Source of the DNA: Escherichia coli O127:H6 str. E2348/69
Lineage (GTDB): Bacteria > Pseudomonadota > Gammaproteobacteria > Enterobacterales > Enterobacteriaceae
DNA length: 64,000 bases
NCBI RefSeq assembly: GCF_000026545.1
Contig: NC_011601.1
Strand: one strand, 5' to 3'
The notes beneath the pieces were generated by a model. It was not told the origin of the DNA. It did not search any database and was given only the letters and a program-made list of their open reading frames with translations. The position numbers were made by a program, and so were the translations under genes. This document shows positions 24,264-39,517 of this stretch, piece by piece (within the stretch, counting starts at the first letter, position 1; the number at the start of each line of letters is the position of its first letter).

Positions 24264-25640
24264 TCATACGTCCGCCCCTTGTGCATATCGTCTGCCACGC
24301 GCAGCAGGTGCATTTGATGCTGTGCAAATCTGTCTGGCTTCATCCTGGTCACATGCAACAAAGTGTCCGTTGCAGAACCGCTGGTAAACCGTACCAAGCG
24401 AGCCAAAACGGTTTTTCGTCACGATGATTTCAGCAAATGGCGCGGCGCTACTGTTCTCGTCATATACCGCTTCCCGATAGAGCATGATGATTGAGTCTGC
24501 ATCCTGTTCAATGCTTCCTGAATCACGCAAATCTGCGTTTGTCGGGCGTTTGTTTGGTCGCTTCTCAACATCGCGCGAAAGCTGACTCAGGGAGATAACA
24601 GGCGTTTTCAGGTCTTTCGCCATCGCCTTCAGGCTTCCGGAGATGTGAGCAATTGCAAGGTCGTTGCGGTCTGCTTTCGGCTTCTCAATCAGGCCAAGAT
24701 AATCCGCCATGATGAGTGACAGGTTTGGATTTTCCTGTTTGTGCCGTTCTGCGATTGAGCGTATTTCTTCGACCGATAACCGCGAGGCATCGACTACCCA
24801 TACATCCAAATCTGCAAGCTGATTCATGCCGTTAGCAACGCGCGCCCAGCCTTCGTCATCCATCGATGCAGGATTTCGCAGCACGCTAACCGACATCCTC
24901 CCGGCGTTGGCAATGCTTCGCTCTGCAATCTGCAATGCGCTCATTTCCATTGAGAAAATCAATACCCCGCGCCTGACGTCAGAACCAGGAAGAACGCGGC
25001 TTGCAACGCCTTCGGCAATCTTTAGCGCCAGTTCGGTTTTCCCCATACCAGGACGAGCGGCGATTATCACCAGGTCTTCCGCGTTCATCCCTCCGGTGAT
25101 GGCGTCAAGTTCTTCGATTCCGGTCTTCAGGGTATCTGATTCCTCTCCGTTCCTCAGACGCCTGTCAAGCGTGTCAGTGTAGTCAGTAATGATTTCCCCT
25201 AACCGTACAGGTTTTACCTCGTCACGGGGCTTTCTGATGGCTGAGAGACGCTTTACAAGTTCATCCATCGCCTGACTCGATGCGTCGATGGTTCCGCTCT
25301 GAATTGGTTCACGCATTTCATCCATGATTTCCAGCACCAGACGGCGGTGATAGTTATCCGCGACCATTCCGGCATATCCCTTCAGGTTTGCGGCGCTCGG
25401 GCAGTTTTTGCTGGTCATCAGGATTGAGGTGAAATGCTCCTCTCCGCACGCCTCGGCAACCATCAGCGCGTCGATTAGGTTTCTGTTTCTCGCCTGCTTG
25501 CGGATAACCTCGAAGGCTTTCCGGTAGAGCGGAATTGAAAACGCTTCCGGCTCCAGTGTTGCCAGAACGTCGCTGGCGGTTGGAGTTAATCCACCAATCA
25601 GCAGGCCACCGATAACACTCGCTTCGATATCCTGTCTCAT
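24264..25640 (-). CDS. Replicative DNA helicase, DnaB-like (replaces lambda P)
   Basis: Walker A GMGKTE and DnaB-type C-terminal domain. Confidence 0.85.
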
Positions 25641-26584
25641 GCAATCCCCCTGTCTGCAAACTTCCCTTCCCGTACTCCCGTTAACGAATCTTCCCTCAGC
25701 AGGTAATCAAAATCTGCCGTCCAGCCAGTGTCGTTGTCTCCGAAGTAAAACGGCTTGGCCTGATGCACAAACGCCCTGACATACGCTCTGAAACCGTCCA
25801 CGTTTGGCGTTTTCAGTTGCGGGATGATTTTCTTCAGGCGGCGTTTGCGTTTCTCGTTGACCGCAACAGCGTGTGGCAGTCTGTCACCGACTTCGGTGTT
25901 GTAGGCGTTCAGGAAGGATTCGTAGTCGATTCGTTCTGCCTTGCGACGTTCAGGTTTAACCTGCCCATCGCCTCCCCCATTGGGGGGTAGGGGGGTATTA
26001 TTTATATTCTTGTTAATACCTTCTTGTTCATCATGTGCGGTTGTTTGTGCGGCTTCATGTGCGCTTTCATGTGCGGCATGTGCGCTGAAAGCCGCGCCAT
26101 TACTGGCTTCGTCATGTGCGGCATCATGTGCGGTTGTTTGTGCGGCTTCATGTGCGGGTAAATTGTCCATTTTTTGAGCATATTCATGGTAATTTGTGAT
26201 GGTGATCACACGACCTTTTTGCTTCTCTCCATCAATGGAGATCATCCCCTCTTTCACAAAAACCTGAAGCATCCGCTCAACCTGATCACGGCTTGCTGGC
26301 TTGCCATGTCTGTCGCATAACTGAAGACCTAAATCAGCTGCTGTCACAACCAGTTGACCGGGTTGCAGATGCCATTCATGACCTTTGAAATTCGCTTTGT
26401 ATGGCTTTCTGGCGGCATTCAGGAGAAGGTTTTCCCACAGGGTGCGAAGATAAACATCTTTCGCCCATGACTGTTTCAGAATGCTCCGGTACAACGGAAT
26501 GTAACCAGTTTTCTGGTTCTCCATCCTGTTGCTCCTGCGCTCGTGTGCGGCGCTGAAATCGTAGATTTTTGCTGTATTGCTCAT
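25637..26584 (-). CDS. O: Replication initiator O-like protein (iterons within coding sequence)
   Basis: N-terminus [10 protein letters not shown] similar to lambda O; internal repeated [11 protein letters not shown] peptides correspond to DNA iterons. Confidence 0.7.
26029..26158. repeat. Origin-like iteron array (two clusters of ~12-bp repeats, core catgtgcgg) with adjacent AT-rich tract
   Basis: Direct repeats tcatgtgcgg / ttgtttgtgcgg / cttcatgtgcgg seen inside the O gene; AT-rich stretch at ~25997-26027. Confidence 0.6.
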
Positions 26585-26586
26585 AA

Positions 26587-26859
26587 CTACCTGCCTTGAC
26601 GAAAGACCTTAAGAACATTGTTAAACTGACTTACGGATATGTCTTCTTTGAGCAGCTTTTCCAGAAATGCGTTTGGAATGAACGTATATCCCTCCTCTTT
26701 TGGTAGAGACGGAAGCAACGCCCTCGCCTCAGCCTTCAGAAGCTCAGTTCTGGCAACTTTCACAAAAGAGATTTGAGTTCTTTCATCAATGGAACGAAGG
26801 AAGCGCAAACGCTTAGCTTCTTTGTGTGTATCAGGTGGATTAAAGCCTTTGTTTCGCAT
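26587..26859 (-). CDS. Hypothetical protein between cII and O
   Basis: ORF track 26587..27024 trimmed to ATG at 26859 (GAGGT RBS) to avoid overlap with cII. Confidence 0.4.
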   Translation of the reverse strand: MRNKGFNPPDTHKEAKRLRFLRSIDERTQISFVKVARTELLKAEARALLPSLPKEEGYTFIPNAFLEKLLKEDISVSQFNNVLKVFRQGR

Positions 26860-26881
26860 ATAATTACCTCGCTGGATATTG

Positions 26882-27178
26882 TTAAAATTCCATCTGGGTT
26901 TGTTCAGAACGCTCGGTTGCCGCCGGGCGTTTTTTATTGGTGAGTCCATCAAGCGCATACTTAAAAGCCCTACTAATCGGACTGATGTCTGATGCCATTC
27001 CGAAAGCACACAAGACCGAAGCAATAAATCTCCAGTCCGTTCTGCTTATCTTCGATTCATGACAGCCAATCATCTTTGCCAGACCGCGCTGGGTAAGCGT
27101 TGACAGGTTGATGAGTAAATCTGTTTCTGCGCGATCAATTTCTCGCTGTGTTGGCTTGCTGTAACTTGCTTGTGTCAT
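26882..27178 (-). CDS. cII: cII-like transcriptional activator (mosaic: lambda-like C-terminus, divergent N-terminus)
   Basis: C-terminal LTNKKRPAATERSEQxQMEF matches lambda CII; N-terminal ~75 aa diverge. Confidence 0.7.
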   Translation of the reverse strand: MTQASYSKPTQREIDRAETDLLINLSTLTQRGLAKMIGCHESKISRTDWRFIASVLCAFGMASDISPISRAFKYALDGLTNKKRPAATERSEQTQMEF

Positions 27179-27316
27179 TTCTTAATATTTCCAATAGTGA
27201 ATAGTTAGTTGAAAGATATGCGTGGAAACGCATATGGCCTTAGTTGGTCAGATATATTGGGACTCGCTTTGTCAGCGACGTAGGACGAATGTCCATTGTG
27301 AAAATAGCGGTGTTAC

Positions 27317-27526
<210 letters not shown>

Positions 27527-27543
27527 TTAGTACATGCAACCAT

Positions 27544-27607
27544 TATCACCGCCAGAGGTAAAATAGTCAACACGCACGGTGTTAGATATTTATCCCTTGC
27601 GGTGATA
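27544..27607. promoter_or_regulatory. oR1-oR2-oR3 operators with overlapping pR/pRM (lambda-type)
   Basis: tatcaccgccagaggta, caacacgcacggtgtta, tatcccttgcggtgata read directly; match lambda oR sites. Confidence 0.85.
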
Positions 27608-27614
27608 GATTTAA

Positions 27615-28331
<717 letters not shown>

Positions 28332-28338
28332 CACGTAA

Positions 28339-28776
28339 ATGATTAAAGAACGTATTTCTTATATCATTCCGATTGCGATGGATGAAGGCAACCCAGTAAC
28401 TCCAGTTCTTATCTATGAAATGGATAAAGACTCCCATGAAGTGGATCTATCATTTGGCGCTTTTTTTATCGGCCTTAAGGCTACAAAAAAATATTCCATA
28501 GGCATTGAGGTTTTCAATGCTCAAGAAATACCGATACCAATTGACACAAAACTGTACTCCAACCATAAGTTTTTTACGGTAGCAGAAGCCAACGATGGAG
28601 AAACCATCGTATCAACTTCTATGAGAATTAACTTCCCAAGGGTGAAAATTATCAAGCCTGGGATATTCGAAGTTAGAGCATCACTGGTTAATCCTGATAA
28701 AGGCGAAGTAATTGATGTAAAAAGTTCGTTTTTTGACGTGAAGATAACAGGATCAGTTCGCGATGAGTTTAGATAA
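28339..28776 (+). CDS. Hypothetical 145-aa protein occupying the rexA position
   Basis: ORF track; starts 8 nt after cI stop; no recognisable family. Confidence 0.6.
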   Translation: MIKERISYIIPIAMDEGNPVTPVLIYEMDKDSHEVDLSFGAFFIGLKATKKYSIGIEVFNAQEIPIPIDTKLYSNHKFFTVAEANDGETIVSTSMRINFPRVKIIKPGIFEVRASLVNPDKGEVIDVKSSFFDVKITGSVRDEFR

Positions 28777-29134
28777 CAAGGTTGCTCAGCTTCGTCCAAA
28801 TCAAAACATATCTCGCCCAATTGGACACTATTCCACTGATGATGCATACTCACGGCATGGTGGAGGAAACGGCGGAGGTAACATGCTTGAGGCTAGAGTT
28901 GCAAAGCTAGAGTCTGATGTTGAATACATCAAGCGCGATCTCGCTGAAGTAAAGTCAGATATAAAATCTGTAGATTCTCGTCTGTCAGGTATTGAGACAA
29001 GCATTAGCTCAGCAAAAATCACCATCAAGGCATCTGCGGTCGTTGTCAGTTTCGTGTTCGCATTTTGCGCCTACATTTTTGGAAGTTATGTTTCCAAAAT
29101 CCTTGATGCCTTAAACGGACTCGTTCTTAAGTAA
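28763..29134 (+). CDS. Hypothetical 123-aa membrane-anchored coiled-coil protein occupying the rexB position
   Basis: Gly-rich linker GGGNGGGN, predicted coiled coil, C-terminal hydrophobic helix AVVVSFVFAFCAYIFGSYV; start overlaps upstream stop. Confidence 0.6.
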   Translation: MSLDNKVAQLRPNQNISRPIGHYSTDDAYSRHGGGNGGGNMLEARVAKLESDVEYIKRDLAEVKSDIKSVDSRLSGIETSISSAKITIKASAVVVSFVFAFCAYIFGSYVSKILDALNGLVLK

Positions 29135-29140
29135 CACACA

Positions 29141-29168
29141 ACCCGGCCTCAGCGCCGGGTTTTCTTTA
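29141..29168 (+). terminator. Rho-independent terminator (timm-like) ending the cI operon
   Basis: Hairpin cccggcctcagcgccggg followed by TTTTCTTT. Confidence 0.6.
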
Positions 29169-29324
29169 CCTCACGATCCCCTTCACCCAATAACACATAA
29201 CCAATTGTATTTATTTGAAAATTAATAGATACAACTCACTAAACATCGCAATTCAGATCTCTCGATCACCTCCCAAGCCACACACCCCTGCAAAAAAATA
29301 AATCTATATAAAAAACATACAGAT

Positions 29325-29390
29325 AACCATCTGCGGTGATAAATTATCTCTGGCGGTGTTGGCATAAATACCACTGGCGGTGATACTAAA
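29325..29390. promoter_or_regulatory. oL3-oL2-oL1 operators and pL promoter (lambda-type), firing toward N
   Basis: aaccatctgcggtgata, tatctctggcggtgttg, taccactggcggtgata; -35 ttggca and -10 gatact. Confidence 0.8.
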
Positions 29391-29635
29391 CACATCAGCA
29401 GGACGCACTACTCACCAGGGCGGTGAATATACAACGATTCAAGCAAGAATCTACGGCGCTGACAAAGCGCAATAACCAAAGTGAACTTTGGGGTGTGGTG
29501 AAGGGTTCATGGACGGGAATATGTCGCACGTAAAGCGGCGAGGCCTGCGGGACTATTGCCGAATTGAAGTAGGCCGAAACAGGTCGAAATGGGTCTCCCA
29601 CCTACCACACCACCAAAGTTCACCAGGAGGTCTAT

Positions 29636-30019
29636 ATGACACGCAGAACTCAGTTCAAAGGCAATTCACGTTCTCGTCGTCGTGAGCGTTTAAAGGCAAA
29701 GGCATTAGCTAACGGCGTACTGGCCCGCGAAGAAGCAATAAGTTCAGAAGTATTACACCGCCCTACTCTAAGCAGAGCGCAGATTCAGGCTAAAGGTACT
29801 CACGAAACGCCTGAGCGCATAGAAGACGCTAAGCCAATTAAGTTCATGGCACAGGACGTGATCTGGCAACAGAAAGAATACAGACGCAATCTGGAGCGAG
29901 CGGCCATTGTGTACGCGAATGAGTTTGGACATAAGCAACCAGAAACTGGTGTATGTCTTCCAAACGTAGCCATTTACGCGGCAGGATACCGGAAATCAAA
30001 ACAACTGACAGCAAGATGA
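29636..30019 (+). CDS. N: Antiterminator N-like protein (P22 gp24-type, Arg-rich motif)
   Basis: Arg-rich N-terminus NSRSRRRERLKAKA and C-terminus AIYAAGYRKSKQLTAR resemble P22 gene 24 product; first gene after pL. Confidence 0.6.
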   Translation: MTRRTQFKGNSRSRRRERLKAKALANGVLAREEAISSEVLHRPTLSRAQIQAKGTHETPERIEDAKPIKFMAQDVIWQQKEYRRNLERAAIVYANEFGHKQPETGVCLPNVAIYAAGYRKSKQLTAR

Positions 30020-30077
30020 CTTGTGTTGGTCGCCAGAAAATGAAATTAGGCAGCAAACCACTTATTTGAGGTGAGAT

Positions 30078-30548
30078 ATGACAAAATCATGGAGCGTACC
30101 TTTTCCTGAATCAGAAACTGAACATGAGGGAATGCCTGTTTTCTGGAGATTCCAGGCGACAGTTGAAGAAGATGGAATCAAAATATTCGCACTTCAATAT
30201 ATAGCTTTTCATCAGACAGAGCATTATGCATGGTTGGTTCCTGCGCATTGGATTGTTAATTTTAAACCAGCACCAAATCAGTGGTTACAGGAATGGAAAC
30301 AAAAGAGAAATAGATATGCAATTAAGAAAGTAGCAAAAAATGCAGAAAGATCTTTTGCATTCCCAACGAAGAAACTTGCCATTGAAAGTTTATTGCGCCG
30401 AAAGAAATACCATTTAATGAGAATCAAACAAGATTTGGCTGTTGTATCAACTCTTGTTGATGGGATGAAGAATATTGATACATCAACACCAGATATTGAA
30501 TATAACTTTGGACACAACCAAGAAACAGAAAATTGGGTATTCTACTAG
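30078..30548 (+). CDS. Hypothetical 156-aa protein in the ral/sieB slot
   Basis: ORF track; AT-rich by eye; followed by hairpin terminator. Confidence 0.5.
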   Translation: MTKSWSVPFPESETEHEGMPVFWRFQATVEEDGIKIFALQYIAFHQTEHYAWLVPAHWIVNFKPAPNQWLQEWKQKRNRYAIKKVAKNAERSFAFPTKKLAIESLLRRKKYHLMRIKQDLAVVSTLVDGMKNIDTSTPDIEYNFGHNQETENWVFY

Positions 30549-37216: not shown

Positions 37217-37316
37217 CCTGCAACTTGCCGTCAAAGGTGAATAACAATCCTCGCACTCGCGGGGATTTCTTTTATCTGAACTCGCTACGGCGAGTTTTGT
37301 TTTATGGAGATGATAA

Positions 37317-37484
37317 ATGCACTTCCGAGTCACAGGTGAATGGAATGGAGAACCATTCAACAGAGTTATCGAAGCGGAGAACATCAACGACTGCTATGAC
37401 CACTGGATGCTGTGGGCGCAGATAGCACATGCAGACGTAACCAATATTCGAATTGAAGAACTGAAAGAACACCAAGCCGCCTGA
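37317..37484 (+). CDS. Small hypothetical protein (55 aa)
   Basis: Hand translation MHFRVTGEWNGEPF...; followed by hairpin plus T-run terminator. Confidence 0.4.
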   Translation: MHFRVTGEWNGEPFNRVIEAENINDCYDHWMLWAQIAHADVTNIRIEELKEHQAA

Positions 37485-37498
37485 TGGCGGTTTTTTAT
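37476..37498 (+). terminator. Putative rho-independent terminator
   Basis: Hairpin ccgcc-tgat-ggcgg followed by TTTTTTATT. Confidence 0.5.
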
Positions 37499-37541
37499 TA
37501 CCTGATTTGCAGGTTCGATTCCCTATTCGGAGATAGCACTC

Positions 37542-37742
37542 ATGCAACACGAATTACAGCCTGATTCACTGGTTGATTTGAAATTCATCATGGCCGATAC
37601 TGGCTTCGGTAAAACCTTCATCTATGACCGGATTAAGTCCGGCGACCTGCCAAAAGCCAAAGTTATCCACGGGCGAGCAAGATGGTTATATCGTGACCAT
37701 TGTGAATTCAAAAATAAGCTCTTAAGCCGCGCCAATGGGTAA
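37542..37742 (+). CDS. torI: Excisionase / recombination directionality factor TorI
   Basis: 66-aa translation matches the KplE1 TorI sequence as recalled; located at prophage right end next to attR. Confidence 0.75.
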   Translation: MQHELQPDSLVDLKFIMADTGFGKTFIYDRIKSGDLPKAKVIHGRARWLYRDHCEFKNKLLSRANG

Positions 37743-37816
37743 AATAGCGGGTAAAATATTTCTCACATCTAAAAAACTCCATTCCAATCAATCCCCTGCC
37801 GCTTCAAGTAGATGTC

Positions 37817-37830
37817 TGCAGGGGACACCA
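37817..37830. other. attR core: duplicated 3' end of tRNA-Arg argW
   Basis: ctgcaggggacacca matches the 3' acceptor end of argW as recalled; phage-type genes stop here. Confidence 0.5.
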
Positions 37831-38269
37831 GATACCCTTCAAACGATATCTACCTTCACCCCGTAAAAGATAAGTTTGGCAGCACATTTGCCCTATCTAC
37901 TCATTTTTCCTGCAACAGGTTGAAATCTCAACACGGTCAGAAAACGCTGATGACTAAACAGCCCTGGGCCGGGCGATGTAACCATCACACACAATCCTGA
38001 TCGCGAAATATGGCGTGACTTGATACTTCACTCCACAATGCTTTCCTTGATGAATTCGCAGGCCCGTGATACACGGGACAGGTCGCTGAATTACGACAAT
38101 GCCCTGGAAATCAGCGAGCCGTGTATCCAGAGTACATTTGAGCGACTGTACCAGAACATGAATGAGGCGTTTGGATTAGGCGATTATTAGCAGGGCTAAG
38201 CATTTTGGTATTATTATTTTCCGGTTGAGGGATATAGAGCTATCGACAACAACCGGAAAAAGTTTACGT

Positions 38270-39517
38270 TTATATTGCTGAAGGTACTGGCGTTTCCATC
38301 ACTATTTGCTCACGTTTTTTACTCAGGAAGAAAATGCCAAATAGCAACATCAGGCAGACAATACCCGAAATTGCGAAAAAAACCGTCTGGTAGCCTGCGT
38401 GGTCAAAGAGTATCCCAGTCGGCGTTGAAAGCAGCACAATCCCCAACGAACTGGCAATTTGAAAACCAATCAGAAAGATCGTCGACGACAGGCGCTTATC
38501 AAAATTTGCCACGCTGTATTTGAAGACGGATATGACACAAAGTGGAACCTCAATGGCATGTAACAGCTTCACTAATGAAATAATCCAGGGGTTAACGAAT
38601 AGCGCGCAGGAAAGGATACGCAACGCCATAATCACAACACCGATAAGTAATGCATTTTTTGGCCCTACCCGATTCACAAAGAAAGGAATAATCGCCATGC
38701 ACAGCGCTTCGAGTACCACCTGGAATGAGTTGAGATAACCATACAGGCGCGTTCCTACATCGTGTGATTCGAATAAACCTGCATAAAAGACAGGAAAGAG
38801 TTGTTGATCAAAAATGTTATAGAAAGACCACGTCCCCACAATAAATATGACGAAAACCCAGAAGTTTCGATCCTTGAAAACTGCGATAAAATCCTCTTTT
38901 TTTACCCCTCCCGCATCCGCCGCTATGCACTGGTGATCCTTATCTTTAAAACGCATGTTGATCATCATAAATACAGCGCCAAATAGCGAGACCAACCAGA
39001 AGTTGATATGGGGACTGATACTAAAAAATATACCGGCAAAGAACGCGCCAATAGCATAGCCAAAAGATCCCCAGGCGCGCGCTGTTCCATATTCGAAATG
39101 AAAATTTCGCGCCATTTTTTCGGTGAAGCTGTCAAGCAAACCGCATCCCGCCAGATACCCCAGGCCAAAAAAGAGCGCCCCCAGAATTAGACCTGCAGAA
39201 AAATTGCTTTGCAGTAACGGTTCATAAACGTAAATCATAAACGGTCCGGTCAAGACCAGAATGAAACTCATACACCAGATGAGCGGTTTCTTCAGACCGA
39301 GTTTATCCTGAACGATGCCGTAGAACATCATAAATAGAATGCTGGTAAACTGGTTGACCGAATAAAGTGTACCTAATTCCGTCCCTGTTAATCCTAGATG
39401 TCCTTTCAGCCAAATAGCGTATAATGACCACCACAGCGACCAGGAAATAAAAAAGAGAAATGAGTAACTGGATGCAAAACGATAGTACGCATTTCTGAAT
39501 GGAATATTCAGTGCCAT
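38270..39517 (-). CDS. cscB: Sucrose:H+ symporter CscB
   Basis: 12-TM MFS permease translation recognised as CscB. Confidence 0.9.
   Translation of the reverse strand: MALNIPFRNAYYRFASSYSFLFFISWSLWWSLYAIWLKGHLGLTGTELGTLYSVNQFTSILFMMFYGIVQDKLGLKKPLIWCMSFILVLTGPFMIYVYEPLLQSNFSAGLILGALFFGLGYLAGCGLLDSFTEKMARNFHFEYGTARAWGSFGYAIGAFFAGIFFSISPHINFWLVSLFGAVFMMINMRFKDKDHQCIAADAGGVKKEDFIAVFKDRNFWVFVIFIVGTWSFYNIFDQQLFPVFYAGLFESHDVGTRLYGYLNSFQVVLEALCMAIIPFFVNRVGPKNALLIGVVIMALRILSCALFVNPWIISLVKLLHAIEVPLCVISVFKYSVANFDKRLSSTIFLIGFQIASSLGIVLLSTPTGILFDHAGYQTVFFAISGIVCLMLLFGIFFLSKKREQIVMETPVPSAI

Follow-up and report, generated by a model that had tools for sequence, protein, structure and literature searches.

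The cII gene of the lambdoid prophage analysed here, from EPEC strain E2348/69, is a hybrid allele, in which a body of the phage 21/HK97 type is followed by a lambda-type tail. The joint between these two parts is most probably (with a probability of about 0.85) a standard lambdoid module boundary at the overlap of cII and oop, which the E2348/69 prophage has inherited. The cII/oop joint is indeed already known, as a boundary long associated with the swapping of immunity and replication modules. It is an old, recurrent and population-wide crossover site, and a poor marker for the assembly of this particular prophage.

The Prophage and Its Gene Order

The window, i.e., the whole 64-kb stretch of DNA that was analysed, matches the chromosome of EPEC E2348/69 at 100% and carries a lambdoid prophage in reversed orientation with respect to the lambda map. 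The features discussed below are collected in Table 1; the left and right edges of the lambda-like segment are named according to the lambda map. The 90-aa open reading frame lying between cII and the O-like gene belongs to PHROG 2519 (unknown function, E = 7e-57), with no match in a Pfam search. It shares 93% identity with its TL-2011a counterpart, cannot be aligned to lambda or HK97, and is the opening gene of the TL-2011a/Stx-type replication module found downstream. CIII, the FtsH inhibitor, is also encoded by the prophage, according to the annotation.

Several other features were observed along the prophage. Short direct repeats of CATGTGCGG-type units, with a period of about 12 nt, form two blocks 69 nt apart inside the O-like gene (26027-26169). 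They resemble origin iterons within a replication-initiator gene, as in lambda O, and give rise to an unusual His/Ala-rich repeat in the O-like protein. Directly downstream of cI, two plus-strand open reading frames of unknown function, 28339..28776 (PHROG 5893) and 28763..29134 (PHROG 6136, with weak hemolysin-like or coiled-coil matches), hold the position of lambda rexA/rexB, which makes them candidate accessory or exclusion genes expressed in the lysogen. In the E2348/69 annotation (locus L161), the early-left end of the prophage leads into torI and a fragment of DUF4942, beside csc and dsdA, and no integrase is annotated within the stretch viewed. The same annotation places tRNA-Asn, tRNA-Thr and an HNH endonuclease between Q and the lysis genes, and a second HNH endonuclease between ssb and a Rad52-family recombinase.

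Table 1. Coordinates of the prophage features around the cII/oop joint (positions in the window).
Feature	Position	Strand	Remarks
Non-lambda N gene	29636..30019		PHROG 271
cI	27618..28331	plus	
Lambda-type immunity block (cI, oR, cro)	27303..28327		Corresponds to lambda 37231..38255
cro	27317..27517	minus	
Non-lambda cro-cII spacer with nutR	27179..27302	minus	Identity: lambda 44%, HK97 96%, TL-2011a 97.6%
boxB at nutR	27265-27277	minus	CGCTGACAAAGCG
pRE-type CII box	27156-27169	plus	TTGC-N6-TTGC, TTGCTGTAACTTGC; overlaps cII at its 5' end, 6 nt before the start codon
cII	26882..27178	minus	98 aa; RefSeq WP_012578960.1, "CII family transcriptional regulator"
cII body, codons 1-78	26945..27178	minus	Phage 21/HK97 type; DNA alignment to lambda fails
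59-bp island	26886..26944	both	Minus: cII codons 79-98; plus: 3' part of oop and terminator
oop-type intrinsic terminator (tO)	26906..26938	plus	12-bp G+C-rich hairpin followed by TTTTTTATT (terminator scan)
Putative oop-like antisense RNA unit	26859..26938	plus	-10 TATAAT at 26859-26864, predicted start at about 26871, end at the T-run
Alternative linker from cII to the next gene	26857..26885		TAACAATATCCAGCGAGGTAATTATATG; in place of the 33-bp oop/pO block common to most lambdoid phages
90-aa small ORF between cII and O-like gene	26587..26859	minus	RefSeq CDS
O-like replication gene	25637..26584	minus	DnaB-type helicase further left

A Lambda-Like Island with Two Edges

Pairwise blastn against lambda (NC_001416) yielded only two matches in this neighbourhood, at 28327..27303 and 26944..26886, with no alignment over 27302..26945 or leftward of 26886. 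The shorter match corresponds to lambda 38591..38649, with 57 of its 59 nucleotides identical (E = 5e-23). At the protein level, the last 20 residues of CII share 19 with lambda CII, and the island opens with 15 codons that are those of lambda, synonymous positions included. From a codon-aware alignment, the maximum chi-square method places the changepoint at 26945/26944 (lambda 38590/38591), between codons 78 and 79. To the left of this point 94/249 positions (37.8%) are identical, and to its right 57/60 (95%) (Fisher p = 3.5e-17), and the observed statistic was reached by none of 2000 column permutations. The preliminary description of this DNA had read the frame as a CII with about 20 lambda-like terminal residues and an abrupt breakpoint inside the gene. 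This reading is borne out by both the pairwise alignment and the changepoint, which exclude a uniform divergence.

The notion of a single recombination joint holds only in part. The break is sharp, and the lambda-type tail is carried by two mutually unalignable bodies, as expected from recombination. However, lambda homology ends at the cII stop codon (26886/26885) as well as at codon 79, so that the lambda-like piece, flanked by non-homology on both sides, is a 59-bp island with two edges rather than one side of a single joint. A further boundary is found after cro, where lambda homology ends 14 nt past the stop codon (27303/27302), and the nutR spacer is thus also of non-lambda type. The sharp break inside cII is nevertheless best explained by past recombination.

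The adjoining immunity block is close to lambda, at 98.05% identity over 28327..27303 (20 mismatches in 1025 nt). It had been described as lambda-identical throughout cro, oR and cI, which is correct for the intergenic region between cI and cro containing oR (100 of 100 nt) and for the Cro protein, but not for CI, which differs from its lambda counterpart by two substitutions, T3A and K71N.

The cII Body and Its Surroundings

The cII open reading frame is a real gene. The full-length protein matches Pfam PF05269 (Phage_CII) over residues 1-92 (E = 5.9e-36, 123 bits for a cut-off of 21.3), PHROG 191 (CII-like activator, E = 2e-37) and, by phmmer, the lambda CII structures 1xwr, 1zpq and 8igr of the PDB (E = 2e-9). 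Column identity over the body is only 41% with lambda, for 97.9% with HK97 and 96.2% with TL-2011a; the body is of the phage 21/HK97 type. Pairwise BLASTP between the window and lambda bodies, taken without their tails, gave no alignment. This blank result, by itself, would back the initial statement that the N-terminal 75 residues or so are unrelated to lambda CII. It is overturned by the profile search, in which both bodies match PF05269 over their full length, with E = 1.1e-27 (96.5 bits) for the window body alone and E = 3e-40 for the lambda body alone. The two bodies are diverged alleles of one family. A terminator-like site within cII (27038..27013, minus strand) was taken as a chance match.

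The boxB-like hairpin found at nutR recurs with the same sequence at nutL (29457-29469, plus strand), upstream of the non-lambda N gene. The segment comprising nutR and the cII body thus travels with the N/nut specificity and not with the immunity cassette, which is itself flanked by nut sites of another specificity type. Between nutR and cII lies a perfect 8-bp palindromic hairpin, 27216-27235 (ATATGCGT GGAA ACGCATAT), immediately downstream of which (27210) the homology with phage 21/DE3 starts. This hairpin could be a tR1-region or RNA-processing structure, as well as a further module edge.

A pRE-type CII box is present at the 5' end of cII, oriented toward cro and cI, with a candidate -10 element (TAATAT, 27183-27188) 13 nt downstream. 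The TTGC-N6-TTGC motif has five matches in the window, about the number expected by chance, so that its position, and not its presence, counts as evidence. The spacing agrees with that of lambda pRE. The box near cII is consistent with a working CII/pRE pair, as far as can be judged from the motif and its location.

Nearest Relatives among Named Phages

HK97 is collinear with the window over cI-cro-nutR-cII (28331..26886), at 97.7% identity. HK97, mEp234 and HK106 are wild phages that combine lambda-type cI and cro with a non-lambda cII (gp52 in HK97), and in all three the order cI-oR-cro-nutR-cII body is collinear with the window (28331..26955) at about 97-98%. HK97 departs from the window from 26954 onward, where it has its own tail/oop segment, only 71% identical (42/59 over the island). 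It also has a lambda-like oop 5'/pO linker, another small open reading frame downstream and a different O gene. HK97 is thus ruled out as the complete parent of cII, in view of this divergence.

On the other side, TL-2011a and many Stx2a-converting phages are collinear with the window from the end of cro to the DnaB helicase, by way of cII, the small open reading frame and the O-like gene (27324..25022, 97.4%). These phages have the same hybrid cII with a lambda-type tail (56/59 with TL-2011a over the island) and the same alternative linker. They differ from the window by their immunity regions, their cI and cro being unrelated to those of lambda. Informative sites group the window with HK97 over about the first 57-60 nt of cII (27175..27122), where TL-2011a has specific substitutions, and with TL-2011a from 26954 onward; the 167-nt stretch in between is devoid of such sites. 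The joints that are informative with respect to the nearest relatives are therefore located at the end of cro (27324..27303), where the immunity type changes, and between 27122 and 26954, where the affinity switches from HK97 to TL-2011a.

The third relevant relative is lambda DE3, a laboratory lambda imm21 hybrid. It has the same type of cII body as the window, with 93.6% identity over 328 columns covering body and island (27210..26886), and from lambda 38591 on, i.e., from the very nucleotide that forms the island edge at 26944, it is 99.6% identical to lambda. The right boundary of imm21 in DE3 thus falls at the same position as the joint of the window, in the cII/oop overlap (PMC3349717). 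The tail of phage 21 itself differs, as the island has changes of its own there in its first half (KKKRPVCKTERSEQ, including a 3-nt insertion in the terminator loop). DE3 differs from the window by its nutR and immunity regions, and also downstream, where it has lambda O and P instead of the small open reading frame, the other O-like gene and the DnaB-type helicase.

Distribution of the Joint and Reassortment around It

The sequence across the joint, taken as a query of 125 nt, has a match over its full length in 666 of 5,426 complete E. coli genomes, as well as in 94 phage records. The joint, which also occurs in DE3, had been put forward as a good marker for reconstructing how this phage was assembled, a proposal that does not survive such a distribution. 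One of the matches is peculiar: a 2.7-kb record named "Staphylococcus phage SA 1298 Kay" (OR850084.1) matches the enterobacterial cII/oop island at 94%, and is probably mislabelled or contaminated.

A scan of IMG/VR with the exact 36-nt core of the island retrieved at least 120 contigs, of which 107 have full flanks, the window and the references included. Among the matches listed, the 234 nt upstream of the island in these 107 contigs correspond to a lambda-type body in 57, to a 21/HK97-type body in 46 and to four singletons. The 300 nt downstream fall into 10 types, and both major bodies occur with all 10 of them (107 contigs among the matches listed). Since many of these viral contigs are near-identical prophages of sequenced isolates, and thus not independent, and since the counts come from the matches listed, they exaggerate how many separate exchanges took place. 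The two edges behave differently. The left one lies at the same nucleotide, immediately before CTCACCAAT, in all contigs among the matches listed, including the 46 with a 21/HK97-type body. The right one is variable, and most phages, among the matches listed, extend the shared block by about 47 nt, up to and including the start codon of the following gene.

A parallel scan with the core of the HK97-type tail found the 21/HK97-type body in 34 of 34 usable contigs. The HK97-type tail is thus exclusive to this body and the lambda-type tail common to both bodies, which rules out the latter as the native tail of the 21/HK97-type body.

Breakpoints elsewhere in cII do occur, but rarely. Two IMG/VR contigs, L004 and L085, have other N-terminal halves joined to the lambda-type C-terminal half of cII (…LLAVLEWGVVDDDMARLARQV…). 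The 5' part of cII is disrupted in L092, and an internal duplication of the helix-turn-helix segment is observed in L117.

The oop Strand and the Alternative Linker

In lambda, the short antisense RNA oop covers the end of cII with its 3' 52 nt and leads to RNase III-dependent decay of the cII mRNA (PMC5869508, PMC3349717). Part of oop, together with its promoter pO, forms a block conserved among 23 lambdoid phages, which goes back to "sequence 5" of the HK620 paper (as given in PMC3349717). This 33-bp oop/pO block (ACTGGATCaATCcACAGGAGTaATTATGaCAAA) and the island of the window have in common their locus, as short conserved stretches between cII and the replication genes, and the fact that they are shared by phages otherwise unlike. 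The block is located just downstream of the cII stop codon, whereas in the window only the sequence upstream of this codon is shared. Indeed, the block is absent from the window even when 3 mismatches are allowed. The alternative linker that takes its place explains why the lambda match ends at the cII stop codon; this linker is found in 16 of the 107 island-bearing contigs among the matches listed, with both types of cII body.

The fold of the terminator is identical to that of the 3' hairpin of lambda oop, while the 5' third of the putative oop-like unit is unlike lambda oop. The predicted fold of the whole unit consists of a weak 5' hairpin and the conserved terminator (z = -3.2). The sigma-70 consensus promoter scan did not call any pO, because the -35 element of the candidate, read by eye, has only 3 of 6 consensus positions, despite a perfect TATAAT. 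A scan of 25500-30500 against Rfam (E<=1), which apparently has no oop or nut family, gave nothing relevant, with one chance miRNA match. An oop-like RNA, antisense to the 3' end of cII and ending at the terminator, may be made from this unit in the E2348/69 prophage, with the absence of the 33-bp block and the weak -35 element counting against its expression. A more tentative possibility, rather doubtful at this stage, is that the alternative linker defines a second, undescribed oop variant, with its own promoter (the TATAAT overlying the start codon of the small open reading frame) and a shorter, different 5' domain. Such a variant would be about 66 nt long, compared with 77 nt for lambda oop, and its stability or its targeting of the cII mRNA could differ.

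On the cII strand, the C-terminal tail of CII marks the protein for rapid proteolysis by FtsH (HflB), a role described for lambda CII only (PMC5869508, citing Kobiler 2002). By similarity, the tail encoded by the island would presumably act as an FtsH degradation tag in the E2348/69 prophage.

How the Joint May Have Arisen and Spread

A two-step history is proposed, which starts from direct observations: the edges are sharp, the joint coincides with the imm21 boundary, the modules on either side reassort, the terminator is conserved and the body belongs to the CII family. In an old founding event, a 21/HK97-type body would have acquired a lambda-type tail/oop segment where its folded domain ends, and the fusion would then have spread widely. 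Since the bodies that adjoin the island at its left edge share no homology, an ordinary homologous crossover inside the island cannot account for this first fusion. It may have been non-homologous (illegitimate or based on micro-homology), or homeologous within an ancestral tail of about 71% identity. Since a short segment near-identical in many otherwise unalignable phages allows homologous recombination to cross over within it, co-resident lambdoid phages would thereafter have exchanged modules time and again by homologous crossover in the shared segment of 59-106 bp, probably as the main mechanism. A crossover in the island would re-pair any left module, made of immunity, nutR and cII body, with any right replication module, and neither would be damaged. 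The body (codons 1-78) comes with its own pRE-like CII box and adjoins a nutR matching the non-lambda N of the prophage. The tail segment would provide, on the cII strand, the flexible C-terminal tail that marks CII for FtsH and, on the other strand, the 3' two-thirds of oop with its terminator. A direct example of the repeated-crossover step is the imm21 hybrid made in the laboratory.

A simpler history had been implied at the outset, in which lambda and an unknown donor recombined once, and recently, to give this chimeric prophage, with its breakpoint inside cII. The abrupt break with respect to lambda and the adjoining cI-oR-cro block, 98% lambda-like, are in its favour. It appears nevertheless extremely improbable, because the collinearity with HK97 over cI-cro-nutR-cII body leaves no need for a lambda parent, the segment from nutR to the DnaB helicase being accounted for in the same way by TL-2011a and the Stx phages. 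Lambda is not a parent of this prophage. The presence of the same joint in 666 E. coli genomes, in 94 phage records and in the phage 21-derived DE3, as well as the two-edged island and the additional edge after cro, also argue against it. The joint could conversely owe nothing to recombination, if the cII types had diverged long ago while the overlapping constraints of coding, antisense RNA and terminator froze the tail/oop segment. The island indeed has overlapping functions on both strands (PMC5869508), which would slow its divergence. This stasis looks very unlikely, however, since HK97 fulfils the same functions at 71% identity, its tO hairpin being kept through two compensatory pairs, and phage 21 tolerates the 3-nt insertion in the hairpin loop. 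Moreover, among the homologues with the same body, mostly at 76-97% identity over the body, there is a wide variety of tails (lambda-type, HK97-type, short …FEA/…LDA and others), and the lambda tail sequence is thus not forced by function. The occurrence of the HK97-type tail on one body and of the lambda-type tail on both is a pattern of transfer, and not of parallel stasis.

Illegitimate recombination might also take place at random everywhere, selection then retaining the joints that fall at functional boundaries, with the island as a by-product instead of a crossover substrate. The position of the left edge, exactly at a codon boundary where the folded CII body ends and the tail starts, fits well with such a filter, as do the other mid-cII joints of the singleton contigs L004 and L085, and the founding fusion could not be homologous in any case. 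As a general explanation it is very unlikely, because random joints would hardly coincide at the same nucleotide in lambda imm21 and in all 46 contigs that combine the 21/HK97-type body with the lambda-type tail among the matches listed. The laboratory cross between lambda and phage 21 gave a hybrid that switches within the island, and every combination of body and downstream type, among the matches listed, has an identical island core, as predicted by repeated homologous crossover. An inherited module boundary at the cII/oop overlap, reused as a crossover site, is therefore the preferred reading.

Significance

The EPEC prophage follows the textbook modular plan, which in itself is of little importance beyond bookkeeping. 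A lambda-specificity immunity cassette, inserted between nut sites of the HK97/H-19B type, is followed by a 21/HK97-type cII body, the tail/oop segment and an Stx-type replication module. Since the cII/oop joint is recurrent and prone to homoplasy, it is unfit as a lineage marker for reconstructing prophage ancestry. More generally, these data provide a clean quantitative example of module reassortment around a shared segment of about 60-100 bp that is functional on both strands.
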